Below, piece by piece: positions 1-15,182 of a stretch of DNA of 15,182 bases (its first letter is position 1; each line of letters starts with the position of its first letter). The DNA is taken from IMG/VR virus record IMGVR_UViG_3300028482_000024, positions 1 to 15,182 of that record, one strand, 5' to 3'. A program made the position numbers and the translations under genes. The notes under the pieces were generated by a model that was not told the origin of the DNA, did not search any database, and worked only from the letters and a program-made list of their open reading frames with translations. The DNA is from a virus.

Positions 1-2
1 AT

Positions 3-1058
3 CGAACTACAAAAGCCTCTACATTTCAACTACTCTTGGATACCTTGGATTAGTTTGGCATTAGAGATAAATGTAGTATTAACCGCACGGATTTTACTAT
101 CACATTGCCGAATGGTTCGTCATTTTTATGTATGGGTCTTGACGACCCCGAAAAAATAAAATCTATTACAGGTTTGACGGACGCTTGGCTGGAAGAGGCG
201 ACCGAGTTTTCGCTTGACGATTTTAGTCAGGTGAATCTTCGTATAAGAGACCCGAAAGCCGAGGACCAGGAGGTTATATTATCATTCAACCCGGTCAGTA
301 AAGCGAATTGGTGTTATCTACAATTTTTCGCGGATAATGAAGAACTAACCGAGTTCCGCAAAACCGTAAAAATAGTTCATACAAATTATCTGGATAATCC
401 GTTCCTTCCTCCGGAGTATGTGTAGGCATTGTTATTGATGAAAGCAACTAACGAGGTCTATTACAAAATCTATGCTCTTGGAGAGTTCGGCAGTCTGGAT
501 AAATTGGTTTATAATAATTGGCAAAAGATGGATTTTGACCCGACATTAATTAAGGGCCAACTTCTATGCGGACTTGACTTCGGCTATACGAATGACCCAA
601 CGATGTTTATGGCATCAATACTGGTAGAAGAAGAAAGACGCATTTATGTGTTTAAGGAATGGGGAGGAACCGGTTTCTTGAACGACCAAATCGCAGATTA
701 GATAAAAGAAATGGGGTTCGCTAAAAGCCTCATTATGGCAGATAGTGCCGAGTAGAAATCAATTGATGAGATTAAGCGTAAAGGCATCGCCCGCATTAAG
801 CCCTGTGTAAAGGGGTAGGGTAGTGTGTTGTAGGGCATACAAAAACTTCAATAGTATGAAATCATAGTTCATCCATCTTGTCGCAACACGATTGAGGAAC
901 TTCAAAACTACTCTTGGAAGAAAGATAAGCAGACTAATGAGTATATCAACGAGCCCATTGACGCATTTAACCATAGCCTTGACTCGCTCCGATACTCGCT
1001 TCAATGTATCGACGCACGAGCACAATTGGCTTCTATGAATAAAGATTTATTGTTCTAA
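3..1058 (+). CDS. terL: Terminase large subunit (PBSX/Terminase_3-like), 5' truncated by the window edge; contains 7 in-frame TAG codons
   Basis: Frame 3 is open from the window edge to TAA 1056-1058 if the TAGs at 51, 423, 699, 753, 816, 831 and 852 are read as sense. The translation carries terminase motifs before and after the TAGs: DAWLEEATE (Walker-B-like), ILSFNP, GLDFGYTNDP, ADSAE-x-KSIDE, NYSWKKD and PIDAFNHSLDSLRY (nuclease domain). Track ORFs 105-425 and 429-701 are same-frame fragments of this gene. Confidence 0.9.
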
Positions 1059-1079
1059 TATTAAAAGGAGGACAAAAGA

Positions 1080-2447
1080 TTGTTTAGTCTAAATAATATT
1101 GAAGAATTAACAGATAAAGTAATCCGCAGAATTGTGGAGAATCATCGCAGTTCAGTGTTCCCTCGTTTGTAGAACTTGGAGAACTACTACAACGCGAAGA
1201 ATGTTATTAATAACAGACTTATGAAGGATAAGTCTAAACCTAATAATAAAATCGCAAATGCGTATGCGAGTTATATTACTGATACATTGGTTGGCTATTT
1301 TATCGGCGAACCCATTTCTTATACCTCAAATGACGACACCCTTTTGTAGGATTTAAGCATGATTTTTGAATATAATGACGAGGCTGATGAGAACGCTGAA
1401 CTCGCGAAGAATGCGAGCATCTACGGCGTGGCTTATGAGATGTTATATTTAAGCGAAGAGGATAAGATGATTAGGTTTAAGGCTCTTAACCCAAAAGAGA
1501 TTATTCCTATTTTTGATAAGACTGTGGAGCAGAACTTGATGGCAGTCATTCGTTATTATGATGATTATGATGTAGTTGATGATAAGACCTACACATTAGT
1601 TGAAGTCATCGATGGTTCGATGGTCCGCAGATATAAGATGGATAATTCTTTCTTACTTCTGGAAGAATATCCTCATTACTTTGGCATGGTGCCTATTGCT
1701 ATTTATAAGAACAATGAAGAAGAGCGTGGCGACTTTGAGGCTGTCATTAGTCTGATTGATGCGTATGATAAGATGGAGTCAGATACTTTAAATGATTTTG
1801 AATACTTTGTTGATGCTTATTTGGCTTTGTATGGCTTTACCGCAGAACCAGAAGATGTAGCACAGATGAAGGAGAATCGTATCCTACTCATGGATGAAGG
1901 CACCAGTGCTGAATGGCTTATCAAGCAGACCAGCGATACTTATGTCGAGAACATGAAGAACAGATTAGATGCTGATATTCATAAGTTCGCCAAGTGTCCT
2001 AATATGTCTGATAAGGAGTTTGCCTCTAACGCATCAGGCGTGGCTATTAAGTTCAAGTTGTTAGGCACAGAGAACCTCGTATCTATTAAGGAGCGTAAGT
2101 TCAAGCGTGGCTTACAGCAGAGATTAGAACTAATGAGTATGATTAATTCAGTATTACGCGAAGGCTTTGATTGGCGTGCTATTGATATTATCTTTACTCG
2201 TAATATCCCATCTAATGATACTGATATTGCTAACATGGTAAATACTTTGAAGGACATCGTTAGTGAAGAGACATTGCTGGCTCAAATCCCATTTGTCGAG
2301 GACGTTCAAGATGAATTAGAGCGTCTAAAACAAGAACGCGAAGAAAATAAAGAACTGAACCCATTTTTCCAAACAGGATTATCATATCAGACCAATGCTA
2401 TGGCTAACAGCACAGAGCAACAGGTTAAAGAGGAGGAGAAAGAATAA
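1080..2447 (+). CDS. Portal protein (SPP1 gp6-like), TTG start, 2 in-frame TAG codons
   Basis: AGGAGG at 1066-1071 lies 8 nt upstream of TTG 1080. The frame matches track ORF 1359-2447 and is interrupted only by TAG 1170 and TAG 1347. The restored N-terminus reads (M)FSLNNIEEL...FPRL-x-NLENYYNAKN...KPNNKIANAYASYITDTLVGYFIGEPISY, the typical gp6-family portal N-terminal region. The gene ends with TAA at 2445-2447 and encodes 455 aa, a typical portal size. Confidence 0.85.
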
Positions 2448-2836
2448 TGGGATTAGAATTATTGTTCCAGATTTTCGAGTTGTGTATTATTCCTCTATTA
2501 GCGGTGCTAACCGGCTATTTAGTTCAGTGGATTAAAGCAAAGACCGCAGAGGCAACAGAAAAGAACCAGAAGGATGTATTTGATAAATACATCACTATGT
2601 TGGGTGAAACGGTCGCCAAGTGCGTGTCCGCAACTAATCAGACCTATGTAGATGCGTTAAAGAAGGCCGGCTCATTTGATGCCGAGGCCCAGCAATACGC
2701 ATTTGATATGACCTTATCCGCAGTTATGGGCGTGTTGGGTCAGGATGCTATTGAATACTTAACCGCTATCTATGGTGATTTACACACTTATTTGACTACA
2801 TTAATTGAGGCCGAAGTAAAGGCACAGAAGGAGTAA
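2447..2836 (+). CDS. Small membrane-anchored protein (N-terminal TM helix; architecture reminiscent of LL-H-type holins); function uncertain
   Basis: Intact 129-aa ORF coupled to the portal stop (TAATG), with GAGGAGGAG upstream. It has the hydrophobic N-terminus LELLFQIFELCIIPLLAVLTGYLVQWI followed by a charged helical region ending LIEAEVKAQKE. There are no in-frame TAGs. Confidence 0.55.
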   Translation: MGLELLFQIFELCIIPLLAVLTGYLVQWIKAKTAEATEKNQKDVFDKYITMLGETVAKCVSATNQTYVDALKKAGSFDAEAQQYAFDMTLSAVMGVLGQDAIEYLTAIYGDLHTYLTTLIEAEVKAQKE

Positions 2837-2837
2837 T

Positions 2838-3746
2838 ATGAGTATCACAACAGTTCCAGAGGTTCCGCATTTTAATCGCTATGTTAAGCCGACTGTTGAG
2901 TTAGTCCTTCGACTATTGGCCGAGGCCTATGAAGACCAACACCTATTGGATAAGATACTAAAAGAAATTAGCGATGAAGTGTTCGCGGAACTGGCAAAAG
3001 AAATCCAACGGTTGGCTGATGATGGTAAAATTAATCTTGATAAAAAGATTGATTTATATAATAATCCCGCACTTCTCACCGCGTTAAAGCGGATTGAGGC
3101 GAAGTAGTTGTAGAGATTTACTGAATATTGTTGGATAGGATATCAGGTAATTGGGGAGAGTTTGGTGCGGGCTTACTCTACAACTCTCGCCGAGACTTAT
3201 CAGATGTTTAATTATACAAAAGGGCTTGACCCACATAACCTCTCTTCTGGACCAAAGTCGTATAATGTATATGTTTAGACAACTGACACTCATATTCGGG
3301 AGCAGGTGCTTAATGTGCCGTGGTGTCAGGATGGTAAGATTTATAGTGATAGACTCTGGGGACATGTAGCACAATTTCAATAGAAATTGAGTTATGTTTT
3401 AGAAGAGGGGATTAGTAAAGGTAGAGGTATGGAATGGATGATGTAGGCGTGGCAGAAATTGGCTGGTGGAACGGCGTATAACACTGCCCGCCTACTGAAA
3501 ACCGAGACAATGGCGATGTGGTCTCGGGCAACGAAAGACGCATATCTTGAAATGGGAATTGAATATGTCGCTATTGTGGGCGACGCAGAATGTGGAGGCA
3601 TTTGTCTGGATTATGTTGATGGCGAACCAATCCCATTGGCAGAGGCGGAGATTGGCGACCTACTCCCTCCATATCACCCGAACTGTGCTTGTAGTTTTGT
3701 GGCCTGGGAAGAGACTGTTGAAATCCCATTGGGCGAAGAAGTATAA
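2838..3746 (+). CDS. Head morphogenesis / minor capsid protein (Phage_Mu_F, SPP1 gp7-like), 5 in-frame TAG codons
   Basis: Track ORFs 2838-3107 and 3459-3746 share a frame and are joined by open sequence interrupted only by TAGs at 3105, 3111, 3276, 3381 and 3444. The joined protein (302 aa) shows the family hallmarks WCQDGKIYSDRLW, NTARLLKTETMAMW, and DAECGGICLDYVDGEPIPLAEAEIGDLLPPYHPNCACS (C-x-x-C ... PP-HPNC-C motif). It ends with TAA at 3744-3746. Confidence 0.85.
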
Positions 3747-3827
3747 ATCCATCGCTACTATTCTTAATATATTTTAGAAGGCTACAACTCAATGAGGGGT
3801 AGCAAATTAATTGGAGGTTTTATTTTT

Positions 3828-4418
3828 ATGGCTGAAATTGTAAATGATAAGGGTTCTGTTGTTGAATCTTCAACTGGCATTGAGACAGGGGAAGTCGCGG
3901 TTGAGAAAACTTATACTGAAAGCGAAGTCCAAGCATTATTACAACGCGAAGGCGACCGTAGAGTATCAAGTGCTCTGAAAAAGCAACAGAAAGAGTTCGA
4001 GAGACAAACCGCGGAGGCTGACAAGTTGAGAGATATGGACGAAAGTCAGCGTAAAGAGTATGAATATACTCAAAGGCTCCAAGAGTTAGAAAACAAAGAG
4101 CGAGAGTTCGCCATCGCCCAGAATAAGTTAGAGGCAACCAAAGTAATGGCGAACAGAGAACTCCCTATTGAGTTCGTTGATTATATCGTAGCAGAAGACG
4201 CAGAGACAATGATGGAGAATATCACCGCATTTGAACGAGCATTTAAGTCCGCAGTGGCCGATGCCGTAGCGAAGAAGATTGCGTCTCCCGCACCAAAGAC
4301 TGGGTCCGCTAAACAGACAGGTATGACAAAAGAGGAGTTCAGAAAGTTGTCAGTGGCACAACAGACTGAAATCTTCCGCACTAATCCTGAATTATATAAG
4401 CAGATGACCCGACAATAA
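3828..4418 (+). CDS. Capsid scaffolding protein (DUF4355-like)
   Basis: GGAGG at 3813-3817 lies 10 nt upstream of ATG 3828; the track start at 3792 lacks an RBS. The product is charged and coiled-coil-like: EVQALLQREGDRRVSSALKKQQKEFERQTAEADKLRDMDESQRKEYE...ELPIEFVDYIVAEDAETMMENITAFERAFKSAV. It sits directly upstream of the capsid gene and has no TAG. Confidence 0.8.
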   Translation: MAEIVNDKGSVVESSTGIETGEVAVEKTYTESEVQALLQREGDRRVSSALKKQQKEFERQTAEADKLRDMDESQRKEYEYTQRLQELENKEREFAIAQNKLEATKVMANRELPIEFVDYIVAEDAETMMENITAFERAFKSAVADAVAKKIASPAPKTGSAKQTGMTKEEFRKLSVAQQTEIFRTNPELYKQMTRQ

Positions 4419-4442
4419 CAAATATTAAAGGAGATTATAAAT

Positions 4443-5222
4443 ATGGCACATGTTATTTATGAAAACGAGATTTTGAGTAATAAACTGACTGACATTTTAA
4501 CTACTCAAATTGATATGAACGCTTACATGACCGTTGATACTTCCATGACCGAGCAGGCTGGTATGAAGAAAGTTATCAACACTTATGTCGCTTCTGGCGA
4601 TGTTGAAGAGTTGGCAATGGGCGAGGGCAATGAGACTGAAATCAGCGTAAGTTTCACTTCTGCCGAGTATGATGTTCTGACTTATCAGGGCTATTTCCAC
4701 TACTTCGACGAGCAGGCTATGACTGACCCCATGGTTGTTGATGCTGGCCTGGACGGTTCCGCAAAGACCATGGTTAATAAGTTCGTAGCAAAGGCAATTG
4801 AAGAGTTCGAGAAGGCAACTCTTGAAGCACCCGCATCCGCTTGGAGTTTCGAGGCTGTTGTTGATGCTATCGCAAAGATGAACCTTGAAGCAGAAGAGGG
4901 CTTGTTCCTGTTAATCTCTCCTGCCGACCAGGCTTCCTTCCGTAAGGCATTGAAGGACGATTTGAAGTATAGCGAAGGTTTCGTTCGCACCGGCTACATC
5001 GGCACTGTTTGCGGTGTGCCTGTCATCGTATCCAAGGCTGTTCCCGCTAATAAGGGCTATTTGGCTACCAAAGAGGCTGTTAGCGTATTCATTAAGAAGG
5101 ACACCGAAGTAGAGCAGGACCGCGACCCTGATACCCGTGATAATAAGTTCTGGGTTCGTAAGGTTGCTGTTGTCGCTCTGACCGATGCTACAAAGGCTGT
5201 TAAGATTAATATCGGTGGTTAA
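4443..5222 (+). CDS. Major capsid protein (HK97-fold type, short ~259 aa form)
   Basis: AAAGGAG lies 9 nt upstream of the ATG. The position after the scaffold, strong codon regularity and an intrinsic terminator directly downstream support the call. The sequence pattern (..GMKKVINTY..GDVEELAMGEG..FDEQAMTDP..) resembles small Firmicutes-phage capsid proteins that pair with DUF4355 scaffolds. No in-frame TAG. Confidence 0.8.
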   Translation: MAHVIYENEILSNKLTDILTTQIDMNAYMTVDTSMTEQAGMKKVINTYVASGDVEELAMGEGNETEISVSFTSAEYDVLTYQGYFHYFDEQAMTDPMVVDAGLDGSAKTMVNKFVAKAIEEFEKATLEAPASAWSFEAVVDAIAKMNLEAEEGLFLLISPADQASFRKALKDDLKYSEGFVRTGYIGTVCGVPVIVSKAVPANKGYLATKEAVSVFIKKDTEVEQDRDPDTRDNKFWVRKVAVVALTDATKAVKINIGG

Positions 5223-5247
5223 TCCACATTAAAAGATTGAATGAACT

Positions 5248-5293
5248 GGGCTTGCTTGTTCGAAAGGGCAAGCAAGCCCTTATTTTTATTTTA
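5248..5293 (+). terminator. Rho-independent terminator downstream of the major capsid gene
   Basis: A perfect 11-bp stem pairs GGGCTTGCTTG (5248-5258) with CAAGCAAGCCC (5269-5279) around a 10-nt loop, followed by the T-rich tract TTATTTTTATTTTA. Confidence 0.8.
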
Positions 5294-5308
5294 TTAAGGA
5301 GGATTTCA

Positions 5309-5605
5309 ATGTTAGACAAGATTAAACTTCTGTTGAGTAGATTAGATGATGACACCGCAGATGAACTATTGAATACTCTCATTTCTATGTGTAAAGAAGA
5401 GGCTTACATTTATTGTAATTTATCTGAATACGATAAGAAATTAGATAACATTGTTGTGTGTATGGTTATTGAAAAATATAACCGCATGGGTAGCGAAGGC
5501 ACTACAAGCCAGAGTTCTTCCGGCGTGTCCGCTTCTTATGACAGTTTTTACAGCGATAAGATTGTGCGTATGCTAAATAAGTTTAGAAAGGTTAAGATGG
5601 TATGA
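5309..5605 (+). CDS. Head-tail connector / adaptor protein (gp6-like, SPP1 gp15 position)
   Basis: AAGGAGG at 5296-5302 lies 6 nt upstream of ATG 5309; the track start at 5237 lies inside the terminator hairpin. The N-terminus MLDKIKLLLSRLDDDTADELLNTLISMCKEEAYIYCN matches the connector-family pattern (LK..L.i..d.D.ll..li..a). It ends with TGA at 5603-5605, overlapping the next ATG. Confidence 0.65.
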   Translation: MLDKIKLLLSRLDDDTADELLNTLISMCKEEAYIYCNLSEYDKKLDNIVVCMVIEKYNRMGSEGTTSQSSSGVSASYDSFYSDKIVRMLNKFRKVKMV

Positions 5606-5919
5606 TTAAAAGAGATACAATTCAGAGATATTCCGCCGTCCTAACCAAGGACGCGATGGGCGGGGATGTTGTTGATTTAGTTCCCGCAGAAAATGTAAGA
5701 GCACATGTTTCCATCAACTCTACTATTGGAGAAATCACCCAGTATGGGTTGAAAGAAGAAATGGTGCTACATGTTATAACCGATATCGAGTTAGATATTT
5801 ATATCCATACTCGTTATATGTATTCCGGTCGCCTGTTTAGATTAGTGCGTCAAATTAAGTAGGGTAATGAATATTATTCTACACTAATTGAAGTAAATGG
5901 AGGTAATGTAAATGCTTAA
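5602..5919 (+). CDS. Head closure protein (SPP1 gp16-like), extended 19 codons through TAG 5860
   Basis: The start is in an ATGA overlap with the previous gene. The standard-code ORF stops at TAG 5860-5862. Read-through adds [18 protein letters not shown] and ends at TAA 5917-5919, overlapping the next start by 8 nt. Size and synteny fit a head-closure protein. Confidence 0.55.
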
Positions 5920-6241
5920 CTATAATGCTGATACTAATGCCATTTCTATGATTGCGAAAGACACCGGAGATTTCGTAATTTCACTTGATAATTACTTACT
6001 TGCCGAGGGCGATAAGGTGTTTTTCACCGTGAATGATGGGTTAGAAAAGGAGCCCGCACTCATCTCTATCGTCGTTAGTGAGTTTGTTGATAATAAAGCC
6101 GTTATTCATCTATCTGCGACTGATACTAATTTGGCTCCTGGTAATTATTATTACGACGTTCAGGTAAATACTGCGGACGGTCGTATTGATACTGTATTGG
6201 GTCCAGCCAAGTTTAAAATCGCGGGAGGGGTGAAGTATTAA
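5912..6241 (+). CDS. Hypothetical beta-sandwich / Ig-like protein (first gene of the fibre block)
   Basis: GGAGG at 5899-5903 lies 8 nt upstream of the ATG. The ORF is an intact 109 aa. The C-terminal pattern [28 protein letters not shown] resembles Ig-like domains of phage baseplate/decoration proteins; this assignment is from memory only. Confidence 0.55.
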
Positions 6242-6735
6242 TGGCTAAAATTGAAGTTTTAAATAATATTGACGCAGTTGTTGAAGATATCCCTGTTATT
6301 AACACCTCTATGAGTAATGCCATTTATCGTGGCCCCAAAGGAGATAAGGGCGAGCGTGGAGATGTCGGCCCACAAGGTCCCCAGGGTATTCAAGGCGAAA
6401 AAGGCCAGGATGGTTCTATTGGACCCCAAGGCCCCGCAGGCAAAGATGGTGCCCCAGGTCCTCGTGGAGAGCGAGGCATTCAAGGTGAGATGGGACCACA
6501 GGGACCCGAAGGCCCCCAGGGACCTATCGGCCCCAAAGGCGAAATTGGTCCTATCGGTCCCGCAGGTAAAGATGGTGTTGATGGGGCCCCCGGACAAAAA
6601 GGTGATAAGGGCGAGCCCGGGGTTTCGGGCGTATATGTTGGAACTACTGCTCCTACTGATGAGAGTGTCGTGGTGTGGATTGATATTGCTGGCACAGGAG
6701 AAGATTTGGAGCCCGCAGAGGGAGGTAGTTATTAA
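6241..6735 (+). CDS. Collagen-like (Gly-X-Y) fibre protein 1
   Basis: There are about 33 uninterrupted G-X-Y triplets ([21 protein letters not shown]...GEPGVSG). The start is coupled by TAATG at 6239-6243, and the gene ends ...EPAEGGSY with TAA at 6733-6735 overlapping the next ATG. Confidence 0.9.
6331..6630 (+). repeat. Gly-X-Y collagen triple-helix repeat tract (9-nt periodic GGN-NNN-NNN)
   Basis: Direct reading of the translation, residues ~31-130 of the 6241-6735 product. This GC-rich periodic tract also generates spurious long ORFs in other frames and on the minus strand. Confidence 0.9.
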
Positions 6736-7865
6736 TGGCATTAAAGACTGTTAATGAAGAGAGTTTAGTGGCTCTTGGCAATGCGATTAGAGAAAAGACT
6801 AATACGAATGATTTGTTAGTATTTCCTAATGGTATGATTGACGCGATTAATTCTATTACTGGTGCTATTGAGGTGCCTGAAATTGAAATTAGTGGTAATG
6901 GTAATTATGCTTGTGCTGGTTTATCAGGTGAATATATTAATTTATTTGGAGATAAAATTAAGACGCGTAATTTAAGTAATGCGTAGTATATGTTCTCCTA
7001 TTGTAGTGCCCCTAATATTCCATTTGAAATTAATTTTTCTTCTTCTGCGAATATGTAGTATATGTTTAGAGGTTGTAAAATGAGAAATGTCCCAGTCATA
7101 AATAATGCGAAGCCATCATCATTATATAATTTTTTTGCTGATTGTTATTATTTAAGATATATTCCAGATAATTTCGGTGAAAATTGGGATTGGAGTTCAG
7201 TTAGTAATTCTTCTGCGAGTGTTTCTTATTTTTTTATTAATTGTTTTTCATTGAGATAGGTGCCAGCATTTTTTAAATAGCATTGTTGTGGGAAGCAGTC
7301 TGCTTAGCAGTGTTTATATTATAGCACTTTTCAAAATTGTTATACATTAGATGAAATTGTTGATTTGCCGGTTTATACGGCTACCGCTCTTACATCAAAT
7401 GTGTTTAATAGCACAGTTTCATAGGCTTCTCGTATTAAAGATTTTACATTTGAAGTAAATACTGATGGCACTCCAAAAATCGCACAGTGGAAGGGATAGA
7501 CATTCAATATGACTTATAATGTAGGATATTTATCATCATCTTATGTGGATACACTTACGGGATATAATACTGGTTTAACCAAAGATACACGTATTACTAA
7601 TGACGAGAATTATCAATTATTAAAAGACAATCCTGATGCTTGGACTGTTGATATAAAATATTCTCGTTATAATCATGATAGTGCCGTCCGCACCATTAAC
7701 TCTCTGCCTGATACATCTGCCTATCTCGCGTCTGCGGGTGGCACGAATACGATTAAGTTCAAAGGTGCTTCTGGCAGTGCGACGGACGGAGGGGCCATTA
7801 ACACATTAACCGAAGAAGAAATCGCAGTAGCAACCGCAAAAGGTTGGACTGTAAGTTTAGCATAA
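6735..7865 (+). CDS. Putative fibre tip / adhesin with BspA/DUF285-type FxxC leucine-rich-like repeats, 7 in-frame TAG codons
   Basis: Track ORFs 6735-6986, 7062-7259 and 7509-7865 share a frame and are separated only by TAGs at 6984, 7056, 7257, 7278, 7305, 7422 and 7497. The joined 376-aa protein has repeated YMFSYC / YMFRGC / NFFADC / YFFINC / TFQNC motifs, with WDWSSVSN in between. The N-terminal LGNAIREKTNTNDL motif is shared with the 8532 gene. The C-terminus reads TEEEIAVATAKGWTVSLA. Ends with TAA. Confidence 0.7.
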
Positions 7866-7876
7866 GGAGGCTAACT

Positions 7877-8068
7877 ATGATTAGTAAAGATTTTATTTTA
7901 ACACGCTATGATGCCGATGTCGGCAAAGTATTTGATTGGAAAGAGCCTCGTTATATTGAGGATGAAAATGGAAATCAAATCCAAGAGCATCTATATGTAA
8001 AGACATTATTTATCGGAAATAATGACACTATTGACAACTACATTGAAATTGAGGAGGTAGTTGAATGA
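7877..8068 (+). CDS. Small hypothetical protein (63 aa), paralog of the 9762-9932 product
   Basis: AAGGAGG at 7865-7871 lies 5 nt upstream of ATG 7877. The shared motif is F/Y-DW..P...HLYVK.LF...ND.I-D/E-NYI. It ends with TGA at 8066-8068 in an ATGA overlap with the next gene. Confidence 0.55.
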
Positions 8069-8532
8069 GTGTTTTAAGATTTAAAGACCCTGCTACTAAT
8101 GAGTGGAAAGAAATTACTACTATTATGGGACCTGCGGGTCCCCAGGGTCCAAAAGGTGAAGATGGCGGTATTAAGTTTGAAGAACTGACCGACGCACAAA
8201 AAGAAGAATTACGTGGCCCACAGGGTATTCAAGGACCACAAGGTGAAACCGGTCCGCGAGGAGAGCAAGGTCCTGCCGGCCCCGAGGGCCCACAAGGCAT
8301 TCAGGGTCCAAAGGGCGACACAGGGGAACAAGGCCCGATTGGCCCAGAGGGTCCCGCAGGCCACACCCCCATAAAAGGCACGGATTATTTTACAGAGGCC
8401 GATAAAACTGAATTAGTGGCTGATGTTGAGGCCATTATGACTAATAAAGGATATCAAACCGAGGCGTAGGTCAATGCGTTGATTACTACTGCTCTTGGTA
8501 ATATTGGTGTAGCGGAGGAGGGTTCTTATTAA
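8065..8532 (+). CDS. Collagen-like (Gly-X-Y) fibre protein 2, extended 21 codons through TAG 8467
   Basis: GAGGAGG lies 9 nt upstream of the start. There are 4 + 17 G-X-Y triplets, then [18 protein letters not shown], a motif common in phage collagen-like fibres. Read-through of TAG 8467 adds [20 protein letters not shown], reproducing the ...EGGSY C-terminus and the TAATG junction of collagen-like protein 1. Confidence 0.85.
8128..8367 (+). repeat. Gly-X-Y collagen repeat tract (two blocks separated by a 17-residue interruption)
   Basis: Direct reading: [12 protein letters not shown], then the interruption [17 protein letters not shown], then [51 protein letters not shown]. Confidence 0.85.
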
Positions 8533-9116
8533 TGAGTAAAGTATTTATTGAAGAAGAAACCCTTATTGGGATTGGTAATGCCATTCGTGAAAAGAACGGC
8601 ACTACGGATTTGATTGCGACTACTGATATGGCTACTGCGATTAGTAATCTGGCTACTGGAAATGGTAGTGGTAATTGGAGTGCCCCTGTGGCTCTAACGT
8701 GGGCGGATACTCAAATTAAAAATGGTGTCAAAGATTCAACAACAACTACTATAACATTTGATTTTTCTAATAAAATTGAGGCTTATGACTATGATTGGAT
8801 GTTTTTAACGTGTTGGGCGGTCTCTGGCTCTACAAAATATACGGTTGCGGTTATGCCTCTAACAACAGTTTTCCCCGACAATGTTGATACAGCAGTTAAG
8901 TTAGATAATTGTGGTGTTTGGTATATGTAGTATGGTAAAAGTGGCTCTGCCACTAACGCTAACGTAAATGCGTTGATTCCTTACTCCTTATACATCGAAG
9001 CATATTATAACCCTGCGACTTGTGAATTAAAATTACGCGGTTCAGGAATGTCAGAAAATCAATTTAAAAATTATGTTGATACAGTAGGCCAGTTGGTTCA
9101 TCGTAAATCTACTTAA
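8532..9116 (+). CDS. Putative fibre tip protein 2 (shares the N-terminal GNAIREK docking-like motif with the 6735 gene), 1 in-frame TAG
   Basis: The start is coupled to the collagen-like gene 2 stop (TAATG). The N-terminus EEETLIGIGNAIREKNGTTDLIATTDMATAISNL parallels NEESLVALGNAIREKTNTNDLLVFPNGMIDAINSI. The standard-code ORF stops at TAG 8928; read-through adds 62 codons, ending at TAA 9114-9116 just ahead of the next RBS. Confidence 0.65.
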
Positions 9117-9132
9117 TAAGGAGGTTTTGCCG

Positions 9133-9750
9133 ATGGGATTATATTGTGAGTTTAGTATAGTTGATGATTTAGGTTATCCGGCCGACTTGTCAGGCGGAGA
9201 TGAAAAAATCGGTGAGGCTTCGGTTTTTGTGAATTATTCCGCGGCGGTAGAAGCATTCATCACGACCTTTTTAGAAGTCGCTAATGAGTTAGTCCCCGTC
9301 GATACTGGATTTTTATAGAGCACCATTGATGCGGGCGGAGGTAGTGATTGGTGCTGGTGTGAAGCGACCGCAGACTACGCTCAATATGTAGAATACGGCA
9401 CAATTAGCATGGACGCATAGCCCTACTTTGAACCGGCTCTTATGGCAGGGATTGAGGCTCTTGGAGGAGAAGCAGAAATAGCCATAAGCGAAGCGTAGGA
9501 TGAATTAGAAGCCATACTGTCGAGTCTGATGGAGGCATCAATGGCGATGGCCGGTAGTTCAGGTGGTATGGGCGGTATGTTCTCCATGGGCTGGGGTCAA
9601 TTCTTTATGGGATTGGCGATTTTCGCGGCGATAACAATCATATTATTTCCGATTTTGGTAAATGTATATGCGATAATAGACTCATTAAGTTATAAGAGTG
9701 ATAGTGGTGGAGGCGGAGGAGGAGGCCTCCCCGAGGTCATTATTACATAA
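9133..9750 (+). CDS. HK97 gp10-like tail completion / head-tail joining protein (SPP1 gp16.1 position) with a glycine-rich transmembrane C-terminal extension, 3 in-frame TAG codons
   Basis: AAGGAGG at 9118-9124 lies 8 nt upstream of ATG 9133; the track TTG at 9127 is too close to the RBS. Track ORFs 9127-9318 and 9529-9750 share a frame, joined through TAGs at 9316, 9418 and 9496. Family motifs span the TAGs: VPVDTGFL-x-STI and ADYAQYVEYGTISMDA-x-PYFEPAL. The C-terminus reads GSSGGMGGMFSMGWGQFFMGLAIFAAITIILFPILVNVYAII...SGGGGGGGL. Confidence 0.7.
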
Positions 9751-9761
9751 GGAGGATTAAA

Positions 9762-9932
9762 ATGGCGAGATTAAGTAATCGTATGATTAAATACGAAGCC
9801 CCCGCAGGTTTCGTATATGACTGGGCCACTCCAAAAGATGATGGCAGTCATTTATATGTAAAATATTTATTTTTATCTAAAAATGATAAAATTGAAAATT
9901 ATATCCTGGTAAAAGACCCAAAAGAGGTGTAA
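9762..9932 (+). CDS. Small hypothetical protein (56 aa), paralog of the 7877-8068 product; below the ORF-track size cut-off
   Basis: AAGGAGG at 9749-9755 lies 6 nt upstream of ATG 9762. The translation is MARLSNRMIKYEAPAGFVYDWATPKDDGSHLYVKYLFLSKNDKIENYILVKDPKEV. It ends with TAA at 9930-9932, 2 nt before the next ATG. Confidence 0.5.
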   Translation: MARLSNRMIKYEAPAGFVYDWATPKDDGSHLYVKYLFLSKNDKIENYILVKDPKEV

Positions 9933-9934
9933 TT

Positions 9935-10351
9935 ATGTTAGAGAAATTAAAGACTGATTTTTACACAATGCTGGTTGAAGAACTGGGTTTAAATGTGCGA
10001 GATAACCGTAATTTCGAGGATGTCGAAAGCCCCTGGTTATTGCTTCGCACTAATGGATATCAACGCGTCCATAGTTTAGGGGTAAGGATGTCTAAAATTA
10101 CATTGGTATTAGATGTATTTTCCCAGTATAATGGCGAAAGAGAAATCATTCAAATCGTTGATAAAGTCGCAGACAGTATCGATGGATTTTTGGCTCAACA
10201 CCCCGAAGTATTATTTTGCCATCAAAGAACCGTTAAGATTTTGGATGATAAATCTACGGGAGTAGTTCGTAAGCACGGCGTGATTGCTTACGAGTTTATG
10301 ATGGGGGAGCATTTTGCTCTCGAAGGCGAGGAGGACCGCACTGATGAGTAA
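9935..10351 (+). CDS. Probable tail terminator / tail-to-head joining protein (SPP1 gp17 position)
   Basis: Intact 138-aa ORF between the gp10-like gene and the major tail gene. The call rests on size and synteny only. The TAA at 10349-10351 overlaps the next start (ATGAGTAA). Confidence 0.45.
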   Translation: MLEKLKTDFYTMLVEELGLNVRDNRNFEDVESPWLLLRTNGYQRVHSLGVRMSKITLVLDVFSQYNGEREIIQIVDKVADSIDGFLAQHPEVLFCHQRTVKILDDKSTGVVRKHGVIAYEFMMGEHFALEGEEDRTDE

Positions 10352-10730
10352 TGTAGCCCGCAGTATTGATACTGTAATTCGCCTAAATGGCGTGGCTCTT
10401 GGCGGACAGCAGGGAGCCAATCTGGTTAGACAGACCGAGGCCATTGATATTACTAATCATATTAATGGTGAATGGTCCGAGAGTCTCGCAGGTAAGAAGA
10501 GTTGGAGCATTGTGTGCTCTGGCTTATATATCACTAATGATAGAGCCTTTAACCTTTTGGATGATGCTTTTATGAATAATAAGACTGTTGAAGTTCTTAT
10601 TTCTTTTGGCTCAACTAAATTGAAGGGTAATGCCATTATCACTGATTTTCCTTTGAGTTCTGTGTTTAATAAGGAGTTTAAATATAATGTTAGACTCCTT
10701 GGCACAGGGGCACTTCTGCCGGAGGCATAA
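10344..10730 (+). CDS. Major tail (tube) protein, TP901-1/phi13 family type
   Basis: GAGGAGG at 10328-10334 lies 9 nt upstream of ATG 10344; the track start at 10314 is inside the previous gene. The 128-aa product fits the family pattern: LNGVALGGQQGANLVRQTEAIDITNHINGEWSESLAGKKSWSIVCSGLYI..AFNLLDDAF..KTVEVLISFG..LKGNAIITDFPL...KYNVRLLGTGALL. Confidence 0.8.
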   Translation: MSNVARSIDTVIRLNGVALGGQQGANLVRQTEAIDITNHINGEWSESLAGKKSWSIVCSGLYITNDRAFNLLDDAFMNNKTVEVLISFGSTKLKGNAIITDFPLSSVFNKEFKYNVRLLGTGALLPEA

Positions 10731-10731
10731 G

Positions 10732-11220
10732 ATGCTTCTACGAACCCATAGAAAAATCTATGAGTTCAATTTTGGTCTCAAAGGATTAATTATGATGCGA
10801 GAAAACGCAGATTTAGTGATGGCAAATGATAAGCATTTTATTTTATATTGTGGGCTTGTGAGTAAGCAACCCACAATTACATTTCAGGAAATTGATGAAA
10901 TTATAAATGAATGCGACTTATCGCAACTTGACATCACACCAAATATCCTTTCTTTATTCGAAGTTGAGGAGTTATACACGAAGGCCGTTGGCGAAATAGG
11001 TATAACTCCCAACGATTTTTACTCTATGACTCCTGGCGAGATTGACCTCGCTTATGAGGGTTATTTGAGAAGAAAAGAGACCGAAGCGAACTTAACCAAA
11101 ATGGCTATTATAACCAGCCAAGACGGTGAATTAATACGTTTAACAGAAGATAAGGGTTATTCCGTAGGCAGTAAGGCAGAACGAGAAAAAGTGTTTAGAT
11201 TATTAAATATTCAAGAATAA
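10732..11220 (+). CDS. Tail assembly chaperone (G-like N-terminal half and T-like C-terminal half in one frame)
   Basis: GGAGG at 10721-10725 lies 6 nt upstream of ATG 10732. The N-terminus KIYEFNFGLKGLIMMRENADL matches the TAC pattern, and the C-terminal GITPNDFYSMTPGEIDLAYEGYLRR matches the P..FW.lTp.El motif of chaperone T-type segments (from memory). It sits directly after the tail tube gene. Confidence 0.6.
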   Translation: MLLRTHRKIYEFNFGLKGLIMMRENADLVMANDKHFILYCGLVSKQPTITFQEIDEIINECDLSQLDITPNILSLFEVEELYTKAVGEIGITPNDFYSMTPGEIDLAYEGYLRRKETEANLTKMAIITSQDGELIRLTEDKGYSVGSKAEREKVFRLLNIQE

Positions 11221-11232
11221 GGGGGATTTTAA

Positions 11233-11403
11233 ATGAATTATAATGAACTCTTAACCCAGTTATCGACAAAGATGTCATCTGCGTCAATTAAAGCAAGTGG
11301 CTCCCGCACTGCTAATAACGCAGTATCGACACCGAAGGAAGATAACACCTCTACAATGTTGAATAAGATTGGATTAGAAGTCCAAAGACAAGGAGGATAT
11401 TGA
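11233..11403 (+). CDS. 56-aa hypothetical protein occupying the slot where a tape measure gene is expected
   Basis: AAGGGGGA lies ~6 nt upstream of ATG 11233. The translation is MNYNELLTQLSTKMSSASIKASGSRTANNAVSTPKEDNTSTMLNKIGLEVQRQGGY. TGA at 11401-11403 overlaps the next ATG (TGATG). It is below the track size cut-off, and coding status is not proven. Confidence 0.4.
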   Translation: MNYNELLTQLSTKMSSASIKASGSRTANNAVSTPKEDNTSTMLNKIGLEVQRQGGY

Positions 11404-14400
11404 TGCTAATTAATGGAATTGAATTAAGTAAGTTGGGCGTTCAGTTGTTTGACCGCGTGCTGTATAGCAACTCAATTGATACCGCACAGGAATGGTTAGA
11501 CGGCGACATTCAGCCTACATTTATTCGCCAGCAAGACCGCTTCAAGACCATTGAATTACAGTTTTTAGTTTTGAGTGCCGATGAAGATGAGGCATTTAGA
11601 CGCATTAGTAAATTAACCGCTATGCTAAAAAAGGCTACTGTAAAGTTCGATGATTTAGGTCTTATGTTTGATGTTAGCATTACTAATGTGGGCGAACCAT
11701 CTCGTCTAAAAAATGGCAACTTCGTTGTATCTTACACATTATCCAGTGGATATGCGAAGGGTCAGCGAGAGATTTACACCACAAATGCTAATATGACTAA
11801 CTCATTTAAATTAACTGTCGCATATTACAAGAACTCAACAACCTTACTATCAAGCGAGACTGTTGTAATTCGTGCTTCTGCTTTTGACAAGGAAAATCTC
11901 GGATTGGCGGATTTGGGAATTGATGTAAATAAGCATCAACCTGAATACCATAATAATGGTGTCGCAACCAATCTAAATGGTTTAGACTTAACCTATGAGA
12001 ACTTACAAAGTTTAAAGGTGTTAATTATTAATTACGCACCTATTAGTTATAACCTATCTGTTGTCTATTATATGGATAACGGTCAAGGTCTATATAACGA
12101 AATACTGAACCGCACGGTTTCATTTACGCAAGAAGGTTTATCAAATTATCAGACTATCGGCCAGTTGGTCGGAGTCAAGGATTATCGTCCAGAAGGATAT
12201 AAAGGTAAAGTATCTTACACCGGAGCATTGGAACTGAATGAACTATTGGCTCATGCCCCGATTTCTGTATTCTACGACAAGATTGAAACAGAAATGAGTA
12301 AGAATATTTTCATTGCCTATAAAGCAGAAAATGATGACGGAGGATTTGACACTATCCAGTCCGTTATTATTAATGTTAGTGAGGCTCAATTTTATGATGG
12401 TCTAACTCTCAAAGACATTATCAGCGTTGATGGTTATAATCCCAATCCAAGTTATTATAATGCGGGTTATATTGATGGATTCGCCTCTAATGCTCTTATT
12501 ACTTATGAGAATATTGAGACCGCGTATAGTGTCATTTATACCAAGGCTGTAAATACTGTTTATGTAGAATACTACGCAGGAACTTATCCCGATTGGTATA
12601 GATTATCAACTGCTACATTACAGACAAAGCATTTGGATAAGTATGATAGAGCGTTCAACGTTTTAACTGATTTGAACCTGGACTTAAATAAATATCATAC
12701 TGCCCCATATAATGATGGTGCGTTATATAATCAAGACATTTATCAGACTTATGATGATGTGCTGAACGCAGGCGTTTTACAAGTTTATTACACCGCTATT
12801 GATTATCCAATCACTGTTAATTATTATGTGGGAGACTTAACCGCTACTCCCGTTAGCGAGACCGTTAATATTAACGCATTAATGTTCTTCGGCAATCCTA
12901 TTTTGAGTGATATTATTCCTATTTTGGCACATCGTCCAGAAGGATATCAATTTAGTGAGAACTTTTCTTATAATGGCGAGGTAAGTTTGGAGGCATTGAC
13001 CCAGGCTTCACCTATTATGGTCGTCTATGAAGAAATCGAAGTGATGCGTTCAAAGAATATCATCGTCCGTTATAAGCAGGAATTGGCATCCGCATACTCA
13101 ACAATTACAACTAATTTAATTACTGTTAATGAGGCTGACATAATTGGTGGTGTGCGTTTAAAGGATGTTATCGCACTGGACGCGTATCGTCCTGAATACT
13201 ATGACAGTGGCATTATTGATGGTGCGAGTTCAACTGCTCTTATGACATTTGACACTCTTGGAGCGTCTTATGATGTATTATACGTAGCAAAGAGTTATAC
13301 TACTCCCGTCCGCTACTATATTGACGAGATTGATGATTTACATTGGATTGGTAGTGCTTCAATTAGTTATCGAGTAATTGATTTTGAGACCACTACTACT
13401 CTATTTGATTTTGGACTTAACTTAAATGCTTATAAGCCCTCTTATGCGGGTGATGGCGTTTTACAATATACTGGTCCTGTTATTTTCTCCGCTCTCTTGG
13501 ACGCACAATCCATTGATGTATTGTATTTAACAGAGACTACTCCACCTGACGAAGATGGTATTGACTATCCTCACCGTTTCTTGTTCTTACAGCATAACGA
13601 TTTGGGTAGTTATGAATATCTACATCCTGAATGGACTATGAACCACGCATTTATTAACACAGGCGTGTCCGCAGAAGATATGTCCCGTTTAACCGTGGTT
13701 ATGGAGTGTGCCCGAGCAGATGAAAATGTCCCCATGTATCAAGTAAATGCGGGATATTCTTATTTATTTGGTAGCACAGGAACCCAGGGCTCATTCTTCA
13801 TGAGATATAATAACCAGACAATGTATGGCGAGGGCCTGACAGGCGTAGATACTTACGAAGCCAAGGCAGGTAATTACAGCAACGCATTAGTGCTGACCGC
13901 AGACAGTGCCGTAGGATTTAGTGAGAATACAGGTATTTATAGTTCTCCACAAGAGGGTTATAGCCGTGCCACTTTCACTTACAGCAACCTTTTGGCAACC
14001 GACGGGGCTCCGATGACTTATCCATTGTATTTGTTCGCAAATAATAATTATGGTAGTTATTCTAACGGCATCGCAGGTGTAGGTATTTATAGTTGTCGTA
14101 TTTATTATAACGACCAAATCATCCGTGATTTCATTCCAGTTCAATTCTACGATAAGATTGGCGATTTAGTCGCACCAAGCAACTGCTTATACGATAAGAT
14201 TACCAAGACCTTCTTCGAGGATGGCACAGGATTAAATAGTTTTAATATTCGTGATGATGAACGTTATGAGGATACAAATCTACAACATAAAATCGGACAT
14301 TGTTATGTCAATTATTATAAGGGTCTCGACTTTATGAAGACTGTCGTCGTGTATTTCCGTGGCGATGAGTTTGACGATGGCGAGTTCGACCTTTATGAGC

Positions 14401-15182
14401 GTTTCGCAGTAGATGCGAATCAGCCACAATATACTTTCTCCGGCGAAATTAAAAATGTTAATAATATTAATGTATCTTTTGATGGATTAAATAATAAAAC
14501 ATTTGAGGTATATTATGAGCCGATTGAGACTCAAATCACTGTTAATTACTATAAGGTTGAAGACAATGGAGATAAAACCGTATTAGCAAGTGAAATTATC
14601 GCATTGAAGGAGAAGGATTTCTATCAGGTTCCTACTTTTGGAGATTTAGTTCGTCTAAATAAATATAAGCCTGATGGTTATGAAACTAACTTTAAATATA
14701 CAGGTAGCAAGGTGTCTTTGGCTCGTGTTGTTGAGGGTTCGCCTTATAACATCGAATACACCAAAATGACCGAGGACAAAATCCCATATTCTACTACTAT
14801 TAAATACATCAAAAAAGTATTTGGTGTGCGTGAATATGAGACTATCGGCACCAAGATTTTAACATTCGACCAGAGCGATTTCCGCGATGGTGAATACATT
14901 GATTTTTACATTGATAAAAATCTGATGAAACCTGAAAAATATTACGTGGATGGCACCACTTATCAATGGTATGAAATGGATGAGCGGTTAGATAAACCTG
15001 AAAATCTAAAAGAGTCTTACACCATTATGTATTCTCCTGAACGCCAATATTTAGATGTAAATTACTACACTGATGAGGTTGATGAGGAGAACTACATCGC
15101 AGGTATGACTTGGAGCCTGGCGATTGATGAATTAGACCCTCGCTTAACTTATAGCATCGTTGATATCTTCCCTAACGAGTAT
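11403..15182 (+). CDS. Giant distal-tail protein: Dit-like N-terminal domain followed by tandem ~83-aa MucBP-like beta repeats and a central jelly-roll-like domain; 3' end beyond the window
   Basis: AAGGAGGA lies 6 nt upstream of ATG 11403. Hand translation gave 1260 codons with no stop of any kind through the window edge; the ORF is absent from the track, presumably because it has no stop in the window. The N-terminus MLINGIELSKLGVQLFD...FDDLGLMFDVSITNVGEPSRLKNGNFVVSYTLSSGYAKG fits the siphovirus distal tail protein pattern. Repeats carry V.YY ... Y-K/R-P-E/D-GY ... V.Y motifs. Confidence 0.85.
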   Translation, partial: MLINGIELSKLGVQLFDRVLYSNSIDTAQEWLDGDIQPTFIRQQDRFKTIELQFLVLSADEDEAFRRISKLTAMLKKATVKFDDLGLMFDVSITNVGEPSRLKNGNFVVSYTLSSGYAKGQREIYTTNANMTNSFKLTVAYYKNSTTLLSSETVVIRASAFDKENLGLADLGIDVNKHQPEYHNNGVATNLNGLDLTYENLQSLKVLIINYAPISYNLSVVYYMDNGQGLYNEILNRTVSFTQEGLSNYQTIGQLVGVKDYRPEGYKGKVSYTGALELNELLAHAPISVFYDKIETEMSKNIFIAYKAENDDGGFDTIQSVIINVSEAQFYDGLTLKDIISVDGYNPNPSYYNAGYIDGFASNALITYENIETAYSVIYTKAVNTVYVEYYAGTYPDWYRLSTATLQTKHLDKYDRAFNVLTDLNLDLNKYHTAPYNDGALYNQDIYQTYDDVLNAGVLQVYYTAIDYPITVNYYVGDLTATPVSETVNINALMFFGNPILSDIIPILAHRPEGYQFSENFSYNGEVSLEALTQASPIMVVYEEIEVMRSKNIIVRYKQELASAYSTITTNLITVNEADIIGGVRLKDVIALDAYRPEYYDSGIIDGASSTALMTFDTLGASYDVLYVAKSYTTPVRYYIDEIDDLHWIGSASISYRVIDFETTTTLFDFGLNLNAYKPSYAGDGVLQYTGPVIFSALLDAQSIDVLYLTETTPPDEDGIDYPHRFLFLQHNDLGSYEYLHPEWTMNHAFINTGVSAEDMSRLTVVMECARADENVPMYQVNAGYSYLFGSTGTQGSFFMRYNNQTMYGEGLTGVDTYEAKAGNYSNALVLTADSAVGFSENTGIYSSPQEGYSRATFTYSNLLATDGAPMTYPLYLFANNNYGSYSNGIAGVGIYSCRIYYNDQIIRDFIPVQFYDKIGDLVAPSNCLYDKITKTFFEDGTGLNSFNIRDDERYEDTNLQHKIGHCYVNYYKGLDFMKTVVVYFRGDEFDDGEFDLYERFAVDANQPQYTFSGEIKNVNNINVSFDGLNNKTFEVYYEPIETQITVNYYKVEDNGDKTVLASEIIALKEKDFYQVPTFGDLVRLNKYKPDGYETNFKYTGSKVSLARVVEGSPYNIEYTKMTEDKIPYSTTIKYIKKVFGVREYETIGTKILTFDQSDFRDGEYIDFYIDKNLMKPEKYYVDGTTYQWYEMDERLDKPENLKESYTIMYSPERQYLDVNYYTDEVDEENYIAGMTWSLAIDELDPRLTYSIVDIFPNEY
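11802..13556 (+). repeat. Seven tandem divergent ~83-aa protein-domain repeats, including a higher-order ~252-aa (756-nt) duplication (about 12045-12800 vs 12801-13556)
   Basis: Units begin FKLTVAYYKN, YNLSVVYYMD, SKNIFIAYKAE, NTVYVEYYAG, YPITVNYYVG, SKNIIVRYKQE and YTTPVRYYID. Units 2-4 align in order with units 5-7, for example RPEGYKGKVSYTG...SKNIFIAYK vs RPEGYQFSENFSYNG...SKNIIVRYK. Confidence 0.7.
14283..15182 (+). repeat. Second array of the same ~80-aa repeat type (at least 3.5 units, continuing past the window)
   Basis: Units begin GHCYVNYYKG, TQITVNYYKVED (with NKYKPDGYETNFKYTG), YSTTIKYIKK and YLDVNYYTDE. Confidence 0.65.

Follow-up and report, generated by a model that had tools for sequence, protein, structure and literature searches.

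A putative split distal tail protein of about 2,900 residues, carrying a long repeat array, in a family of small phages with TAG recoding

The 15,182-nucleotide stretch of viral DNA analysed here (IMG/VR virus record IMGVR_UViG_3300028482_000024, positions 1 to 15,182; hereafter the window) ends inside an open reading frame (ORF) of 1,260 codons that begins at position 11403. Comparison with related phages indicated that this giant ORF is the 5' 43% of the gene for a phage tail protein of about 2,900 residues. We favour the view that the protein is an extreme, split form of the "evolved" distal tail protein (Dit), which would place a ring domain at the tail tip, receive its galectin-like partner in trans from the following gene and extend long glycan-capturing arms; we hold this to be probable rather than certain. 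The underlying architecture, comprising the ORF, its repeats, the gene order, the split of Dit, the full length and the share of the genome taken up by the gene, is well supported, and the folds described below are those predicted by structural models. The features of the gene are as follows.

11390-11396, + strand: ribosome-binding site AAGGAGG of the giant gene, read from the sequence, 6 nt before the ATG at 11403
11403-15182, + strand: giant ORF, 1,260 codons, stop-free, leaving the window at its 3' end
11403-11810 (aa 1-136), + strand: predicted N-terminal Dit-type ring domain (AlphaFold2 and Foldseek)
11811-13526 (aa 137-708), + strand: repeats R1 to R7, from a repeat hidden Markov model (HMM), forming the super-repeat c-a-b-c-a-b-c; in aa, R1 137-212, R2 218-292, R3 302-380, R4 386-464, R5 470-543, R6 553-627, R7 634-708
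13527-14300 (aa 709-966, 258 aa), + strand: non-repeat domain A, predicted beta-sandwich, with the motif ...RIYYNDQIIRDFIPV...LYDKITKTFFEDGTG
14301-15182 (aa 967-1260), + strand: repeats R8 to R10 and the first 44 aa of R11, from the repeat HMM, the ORF continuing past the window; in aa, R8 967-1039, R9 1045-1120, R10 1131-1211, R11 1217-1260 (cut by the window end)

Relatives give the full length of the protein and place the second Dit domain in the next gene

The architecture was common to 20 database proteins and 30 IMG/VR loci, at 45-90% identity. When TAG was read through, the gene had 2,845-3,295 codons in every locus long enough to show it; the full protein measured 2,842-3,294 aa in 10 loci, and seven independent proteins of a cluster library spanned 2,842-3,214 aa. 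In the closest relative (L004/L034, 84% nucleotide identity over 11173-15182) the giant ORF runs on to 2,931 aa. An earlier reading of the window, made from its letters and ORF translations (the original prediction), had described a protein of over 1,260 aa; the relatives put its size at about 2,900 aa.

The C-terminal portion beyond the window (aa >1,260) is known from relatives alone. There, R11 is followed in order by a domain of ~480 aa whose C-terminal strands are paralogous to domain A, by 2-4 repeats and by a region of ~900 aa. SH3b-like motifs could be read from the sequence of this last region, which also gave a weak match to SH3_3 (E 0.027) and a match to a PHROG amidase C-terminal region (E 8.5e-5). 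At their C-terminus the full-length proteins read ...GWI...SEVL, and inspection of these final 15 residues showed no sorting signal (no search aimed at LPXTG was made); the N-terminus was modelled as a phage ring domain, not as a secretion signal. Locus L003 encodes the C-terminal 960 aa in an ORF of its own (15840-18722), which overlaps the upstream ORF by 8 nt; the two are fused in L001, L004 and others. This 960-aa product was considered as a tape measure and rejected, being the C-terminal part of the giant protein.

In 10 related loci the stop codon of the giant ORF is TAA or TGA, and next come the ribosome-binding site and ATG of an ORF of 118-139 aa. The 118-aa version aligned with PF22768 ("Siphovirus-type tail component, C-terminal domain") along the full length of the profile (1-97/97, E 2e-9) and is without a ring domain. 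It is followed by the gene for a Tal protein of 342 aa (PF18994 and PF06605, E 1e-33). In the relatives, the galectin-like C-terminal domain of Dit is accordingly not on the same polypeptide as the ring and has a separate ORF with its own ribosome-binding site. Since a predicted ring stands at the N-terminus of the giant protein and PF22768 lies in the next gene, we conclude that Dit is split in this family, with an adhesin array of ~2,800 aa on the ring half. The possibility of a complete Dit downstream, which would mean that the giant protein is not Dit, was rejected because the downstream ORF corresponds to the Dit C-terminal domain only.

The N-terminal domain is predicted to adopt the Dit ring fold

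An AlphaFold2 model of aa 1-300, built from a 12-sequence alignment, had a mean predicted local distance difference test score (pLDDT) of 79 and showed a beta-sandwich-plus-helix domain followed by two repeat units. Within the first domain pLDDT was ~70-84 outside a disordered loop at residues 24-46. Foldseek searches of the PDB returned the TP901-1 baseplate (4v96_AS, E 1.5e-4), the monocin tip (9j1k_K) and the phage p2 baseplate chain 2wzp_P; taken together, the baseplate matches (TP901-1, monocin, NF5, p2 and Douge) covered E-values from 1.5e-4 to 1.5e-2, with 1.5e-4 to 9e-3 for the entries 4v96, 9j1k, 9m8o, 2wzp and 8zdo. Tube proteins scored ~100-fold weaker, as with lambda gpV (E 1e-2). 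The BFVD list consisted largely of entries annotated as "Distal tail protein", with E-values of 3e-6 to 1e-3 at its top, and the long Dit-like proteins in it measured ~800-1,300 aa. The domain has 37 invariant columns over 18 homologues. According to the model, the N-terminal ~136 aa adopt the Dit ring fold. The original prediction of a Dit belt domain in the first ~133 aa is thus borne out by the fold (Foldseek and BFVD) and by the gene context of the relatives, and finds no counterpart at the level of sequence.

Several points weigh against assigning the giant protein to Dit. Sequence and profile searches of Pfam, PHROGs, NCBIfam and the PDB gave no sequence-level Dit match for the ring domain, and hhalign of the ring profile with TP901-1 ORF46, a Dit, returned a probability of 1.7%. 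The same lack of a sequence-level link applies to every Dit, MucBP, LamG and carbohydrate-binding module (CBM) family searched. The AlphaFold models come from shallow alignments (12-15 sequences), and the Foldseek matches combine E-values of 1e-4 to 1e-2 with global TM-scores that are low. Tube proteins have the ring fold as well, and the choice between Dit and an extra ring depends on the ranking of the matches and on the adjacent gene for the Dit C-domain. In known evolved Dits the modules sit in galectin-domain loops rather than between the ring and a galectin domain encoded separately (PMC7291167). The giant gene also directly follows a chaperone-like gene, which is the slot of the tape measure. 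Finally, the oligomeric state, incorporation into the virion and ligand given for the protein are putative.

Given these points, the N-terminus might instead be an additional tube-like or Dit-like ring distinct from the Dit of the phage, for example a tube paralogue bearing decorations or an adaptor ring stacked on top of the baseplate. On this view the arms would be side fibres, and the 118-aa protein would be an unrelated peripheral domain. The ring fold is indeed common to tube, Dit and Hcp proteins (PMC7291167), Foldseek also returned lambda gpV (7t4f, E 1e-2), the T5 tail (8bcp; terminator p142 and tube pb6) and the T4 terminator gp15 (4huh), and the missing sequence match to Dit families also favours such a ring. 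However, in the PDB the Dit and baseplate chains ranked roughly two orders of magnitude ahead of tube proteins, such chains also dominated BFVD, and the phage has a separate tube gene (PF06199). Moreover, no other ring-domain Dit candidate was recognised in a complete relative (described below), yet a gene for the Dit C-domain only lies directly after the giant gene. We therefore consider an extra ring unlikely.

The array is built from a three-unit super-repeat of predicted beta-grasp modules

Repeat boundaries were defined with an HMM grown iteratively from one unit, and the unit size was ~80 aa. In a self-BLASTP run as a segment-versus-whole search, offsets formed groups near 83, 167 and 251 aa, and residues 285-397 aligned best with 536-645 (39.8% identity, E 2e-24). 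The repeats are far above chance. Shuffle z-scores sorted the units into type a (R2, R5 and R9; z 10-16), type b (R3 and R6, z 24, with R10 weaker at z ~6) and type c (R1, R4, R7, R8 and R11, the last linked via R7). Based on these types the array is a c-a-b super-repeat that resumes after the central domain. Its three-unit period is ~750 nt, and short remnants of similarity in the DNA are spaced 756, 747, 744 and 733 nt apart.

The repeat layout of the original prediction was recovered in this way. Its seven ~83-aa repeats at 11802-13556 agree within ~30 nt with the 11811-13526 given by the HMM, at least 3.5 further repeats after the central domain correspond to R8-R10 and the cut R11, and the 756-nt higher-order duplication of units 2-4 and 5-7 is reflected in the z-scores and in the DNA remnants of 733-756 nt. 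The recurrence of the triplet after the central domain goes beyond what had been seen at that stage.

In the model of aa 1-300, R1 and R2 reached a pLDDT of 81-95 and had the DSSP topology beta-beta-alpha-beta-alpha-beta. The repeat-type matches of this model in the PDB were YwfG (7yl4_B, the best, E 1e-4), the Ruminococcus gnavus immunoglobulin-binding protein IbpA (7kpj) and ISG15; because the query combined two repeats with the ring domain and was multi-domain, TM-scores were low. These matches point to a beta-grasp fold, and in the models the repeats are beta-grasp modules of the MucBP/Mub kind, a statement made at the level of fold only. None of 54 repeat units matched Pfam MucBP (PF06458), even at E <= 10, and the repeat profile gave nothing significant against the PDB and Pfam and found no MucBP structure by sequence. 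The description of the repeats as MucBP-like therefore holds for the fold, for which YwfG is the best PDB match, and fails for the sequence.

Domain A, which separates R7 from R8, occupies a gap in the HMM matches (13527-14300) that lies within ~30 nt of the non-repeat domain of ~245 aa predicted at ~13557-14282. Its AlphaFold2 model had a pLDDT of 70 and a predicted TM-score of 0.75, with a disordered loop of 32 residues (131-162). The best Foldseek matches were neurexin LNS2, laminin LG5, NanB/NanC lectin domains and R. gnavus CBM40; they were weak (E 8e-3 to 4e-2, probability 0.7-0.9, TM 0.3-0.41, for a model with a pLDDT of only 70). The beta-sandwich jelly-roll topology of LamG/LNS, of the NanB/NanC N-terminal domain and of CBM40 may be shared by domain A, and we tentatively describe domain A as a LamG/ConA-like lectin jelly roll. 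The earlier suggestion of a jelly-roll-type central domain agrees with the modelled beta-sandwich, the LamG/CBM40-like resemblance being weak. LamG/LNS and sialidase-associated lectin modules typically bind glycans. Domain A has 91 invariant columns in 15 homologues, and its profile found no sequence match in the PDB. In full-length relatives a second domain, at about aa 1680-1760, repeats the C-terminal strands of domain A (iE 1e-9 to 4e-14). In locus L011, the domain A loop that was modelled as disordered carries an insertion of ~290 aa (aa ~815-1104 of the giant ORF).

The repeat family is confined to phage proteins and TAG codons occur in related giant genes

Neither the window protein nor five homologues had a significant sequence match in Pfam, PHROGs or the PDB, and NCBIfam gave no match. 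No match was found by tblastn against 50,697 GenBank phage records, or with a query of the ring domain and R1-R2 against 185,579 species-representative genomes. The repeat profile found 44 cluster representatives among 1.84 billion, namely seven giants of 2,842-3,214 aa and shorter proteins, mostly <600 aa; the seven proteins scanned for adhesin family domains had none.

Many genes of the window are intact only if TAG is a sense codon. Upstream of the giant gene there are 27 in-frame TAG against 112 CAA/CAG codons; examples of TAG-as-sense genes come from window positions 3-10000 (TerL at 3-1055, MuF at 2838-3743 and the gene at 6735-7862) and from the relatives L008, L014 and L024. The part of the giant ORF within the window has 0 in-frame TAG against 39 CAA/CAG codons, for which P is ~2e-4 at the pooled rate. 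The same region contains 40 out-of-frame TAG trinucleotides, or 10.6 per kb compared with 11.9 per kb upstream. The total absence of TAG noted in the original prediction is thus correct in frame and incorrect for the DNA as such. At least five other genes of the window, among them those for the capsid, scaffold, terminator, tube and chaperone-like protein, are likewise without in-frame TAG.

In recoded relatives the giant gene has 2-33 in-frame TAG, in general roughly half as frequent as in their other genes. These sites align with glutamine in 52 of 209 pairwise comparisons, eight times the 3.2% glutamine background, which supports the reading of TAG as glutamine; one L001 site, SSWqVDDEG, aligns with TSWQVEE in L003. 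On this alignment evidence TAG is most likely read as glutamine. No in-frame TAG occurs in the giant gene of loci L006 and L030, whose few counts elsewhere may stem from spurious extended ORFs. As both belong to the same family, recoding appears to vary between close lineages. According to ARAGORN, the window, the complete relative and three relatives with heavy recoding are all free of tRNA genes and hence of a suppressor tRNA. Host functions or a helper element are possibilities for the decoding of TAG.

These data bear on the origin of the array, which had been proposed to be a host-derived adhesin graft marked by its freedom from TAG. Such a recent capture of a bacterial MucBP-type surface adhesin onto a phage Dit would be consistent with the fold resemblance to adhesin modules of Gram-positive bacteria, with the 0 in-frame TAG in 1,260 codons and with the lower use of TAG in this gene than in the other genes of most recoded relatives. 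However, recoded relatives carry in-frame TAG in this very gene, up to 33 of them, an outcome that the original prediction had itself named as refuting its proposal, other genes of the window are also free of TAG, and the architecture is kept across the whole phage family down to 45% identity. The repeat profile was limited to the 44 cluster representatives, with no adhesin domain in the seven scanned, none of the 54 units matched MucBP, and the ring and R1-R2 query found no match in the species-representative genomes. Because related giant genes contain TAG and the repeat family is confined to phage proteins, a host-derived graft is unsupported and we regard it as very improbable.

A complete relative has no recognisable tape-measure gene

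Contig IMGVR_UViG_3300012974_000005, which includes loci L034 and L037, was 84-89% identical to the window in two blocks and circularly permuted with respect to it. A 123-nt terminal overlap closes it into a circle of 25,690 bp that is 95% coding, its roughly 30 ORFs lying on one strand. The sizes of related contigs fall together at 24.4-27.2 kb. At 8.8 kb (2,931 aa), the giant gene makes up 34% of this genome. No ORF was recognised in it as a tape measure, and no endolysin, DNA polymerase or integrase was recognised. Its non-virion genes, named by reading the sequences, encode an HNH endonuclease, small helix-turn-helix-like proteins, a 240-aa winged-helix-like protein and TerS. This genome may represent a strongly reduced phage, or else an element that depends on a helper.

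Two features precede the giant gene in the window.

10792-11217, + strand: chaperone-like gene, after the tail tube gene and outside the giant protein (context only)
11233-11403, + strand: ORF of 56 aa directly before the giant gene (translation and coordinates)

The chaperone-like product had a weak, sub-threshold match to PF09550, Phage_TAC_6 (E 0.064). Between its gene and the giant gene there is only the ORF of 44-70 aa, found at the same position in 14 of 15 related loci examined; its N-terminus varies, and the C-terminus LLNxIGLEVQRxGG[YNI] is kept. In the window, the TGA of the 56-aa ORF and the ATG of the giant gene share one base (TGATG), an arrangement that indicates translational coupling of the two. 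Family searches (Pfam, PHROG and NCBIfam) with the 56-aa ORF gave no match, and PHROG and Pfam searches of this ORF and of the chaperone-like gene gave no link to tape measures. The 56-aa ORF is the only candidate for a vestigial tape measure or initiator peptide, and may alternatively encode an assembly factor. Tested as the position of a Dit gene, the locus fits on its downstream side in relatives, where the Dit C-domain ORF and then Tal follow; on the upstream side it is without a recognisable tape-measure gene.

The position directly after the tube and chaperone-like genes, together with the failure to recognise a tape measure anywhere in the 25,690-bp relative, could suggest that the giant protein replaces or contains the tape measure, that it sets the course of tail assembly or starts it, and that the adhesin modules are additions. 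The protein is not tape-measure-like: its modelled regions are beta-rich and globular, without extended helices, the N-terminus has a predicted ring fold, and the remaining sequence is Tyr/Asn/Asp/Thr-rich and repeat-like, with no helical stretch seen by eye (no composition or helix analysis was made). Fifteen folded beta-grasp domains could not fit in the lumen of a tube. On the fold and on the reading of the sequence this assignment was rejected, and we give it hardly any weight.

The lineage might have reduced its tape measure to the 44-70-aa peptide or lost it altogether, so that the virion would have only a stub of a tube and would reach its host with six Dit-anchored arms of several tens of nanometres. 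We put this forward as speculation that is unlikely to be correct. In a variant of it, a recoded helper phage may supply the tape measure, the endolysin and the decoding of TAG. If true, a TAG-recoded genome of 25.7 kb without its own suppressor tRNA would encode a virion to which no described siphovirus-type tail corresponds in architecture. Literature searches on a distal tail protein with MucBP, or on siphoviruses without a tape measure, found nothing relevant.

Proposed role of the giant protein at the tail tip

In canonical siphophages the Dit ring is a hexamer located between the tail tube and Tal. We propose that the 136-aa ring domain of the giant protein would assemble at the same place, at the tail tip between tube and Tal. 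Where a C-terminal galectin-like domain would be expected, the chain would run on for ~2,800 aa, through 14-15 beta-grasp modules acting as spacers or adhesins, interrupted by 2-3 LamG/ConA-like jelly rolls and ending in SH3b-like modules. The galectin-like Dit domain from the next gene would presumably dock on the ring in trans. The resulting virion would have several, probably six, very long, flexible and multivalent arms radiating from its tail tip, and we infer that they would capture cell-wall or capsular glycans of a host of Gram-positive type. The four subdomains of YwfG28-511 span 180 Å (PMC9815576); scaled to ~15 modules and the larger domains, this span leads to an estimated arm length of several tens of nanometres if fully extended. 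Because Tal is minimal (342 aa) and no receptor-binding protein was recognised downstream of it, the arms may be the main adsorption device. The small ORFs downstream of Tal are largely unannotated, and none was recognised as a separate receptor-binding protein.

Evolved Dits are known from Lactobacillus phage J-1, lactococcal skunaviruses and Streptococcus thermophilus cos/pac phages, and, equipped with CBMs, they bind the host (PMC7291167). As in those proteins, the giant protein is predicted to retain the ring and to carry additional carbohydrate-binding or adhesion modules at the tail tip, and adsorption to a saccharidic receptor would be expected (PMC7291167, PMC10688798). A place of the gene just upstream of Tal is common to both, here with the 118-aa Dit C-domain ORF in between. 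Evolved Dits have one or two CBMs in galectin-domain loops of a single chain (PMC7291167). In contrast, ~2,800 aa follow the ring of the giant protein, its galectin-like domain is separate and minimal (118 aa), none of its modules was recognised as a BppA-type CBM, and the protein of 2,842-3,294 aa takes up ~34% of the genome. To our knowledge, evolved Dits are modest decorations, in proteins of at most a few hundred residues. As a split distal tail protein, the giant protein would be a new, extreme form of evolved Dit, from a family without annotation.

The classical Dits (SPP1 gp19.1, TP901-1 ORF46 and p2 ORF15) and the ring-only lambda gpM share with it the ring fold predicted for its N-terminus, in which a long loop stands where the belt extension would be, and the order of Dit then Tal. 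Unlike them, the giant protein has no detectable sequence similarity to Dit, its two Dit domains are on different polypeptides and no recognisable tape-measure gene precedes it.

The MucBP/Mub adhesins (Lactococcus lactis YwfG, Limosilactobacillus reuteri Mub and Listeria lmo0835) are also made of tandem small beta-grasp-type modules that form an elongated stalk, with a lectin domain; the crystallised fragment of YwfG comprises an L-type lectin, an Mbp domain and a Mub repeat (PMC9815576). Unlike these adhesins, the giant protein contains no Pfam MucBP unit and has a predicted phage ring at its N-terminus, and its repeat family is confined to these phage proteins.

With a third of a very small genome, the gene represents an upper extreme for the coding capacity that a phage spends on adsorption. 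The family could serve as a natural model for the growth of a modular adhesin array via a three-unit super-repeat, for the splitting of a two-domain baseplate protein into two genes, and for the question of whether a siphovirus-type tail assembles without a conventional tape measure. The beta-grasp repeat and the lectin-like domains would be new entries in domain databases and would allow better annotation of uncultivated phages.

Other genes of the window

The remaining genes of the window form a module for head and tail and share the strand of the giant ORF; some were named from Pfam labels of their homologues. TerL is followed in order by an SPP1-type portal, a holin, MuF, the scaffold, the capsid and connector proteins, and then by two collagen-like proteins with globular partners, an HK97-gp10-like protein, the tail terminator, the tube and the chaperone-like protein. 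The tail tube gene matched PF06199 (E 4e-15). Two genes of the module provide examples of regions with in-frame TAG.

3-1055: TerL, with an example region of in-frame TAG
2838-3743: MuF, with an example region of in-frame TAG

The holin assignment refers to a 129-aa protein at 2447-2833 with an N-terminal transmembrane segment and a holin family match (phrog_13712, E 3e-29). Its gene sits between portal and MuF, an unusual place for a lysis gene.

The collagen-triple-helix proteins at 6241-6732 and 8065-8529 matched PF01391 (E 5e-18 and 2e-10) and end in ...GGSY and ...EGSY, respectively. Each is followed by a globular protein (6735-7862 and 8532-9113), and these two partners have paralogous N-termini (…L[VI][AG][LI]GNAIREK…). 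The collagen proteins and their partners are probably head or neck fibres, a second adhesin set in a small genome. The small paralogous ORFs at 7877-8065 and 9762-9929, which precede the second collagen gene and the tail terminator, have the common motif ...HLYVK.LF......I.NYI.....

The HK97-gp10-like protein at 9133-9747, a neck or tail-completion protein, matched PHROG_5 (E 5e-9) and TIGR01725 (E 5e-5); it has a Gly/Met-rich segment at its C-terminus, a predicted transmembrane helix and a tail of poly-Gly. The region corresponding to 9133-9747 is arranged differently in the L034 relative, as ORFs of 179 aa and 168 aa.

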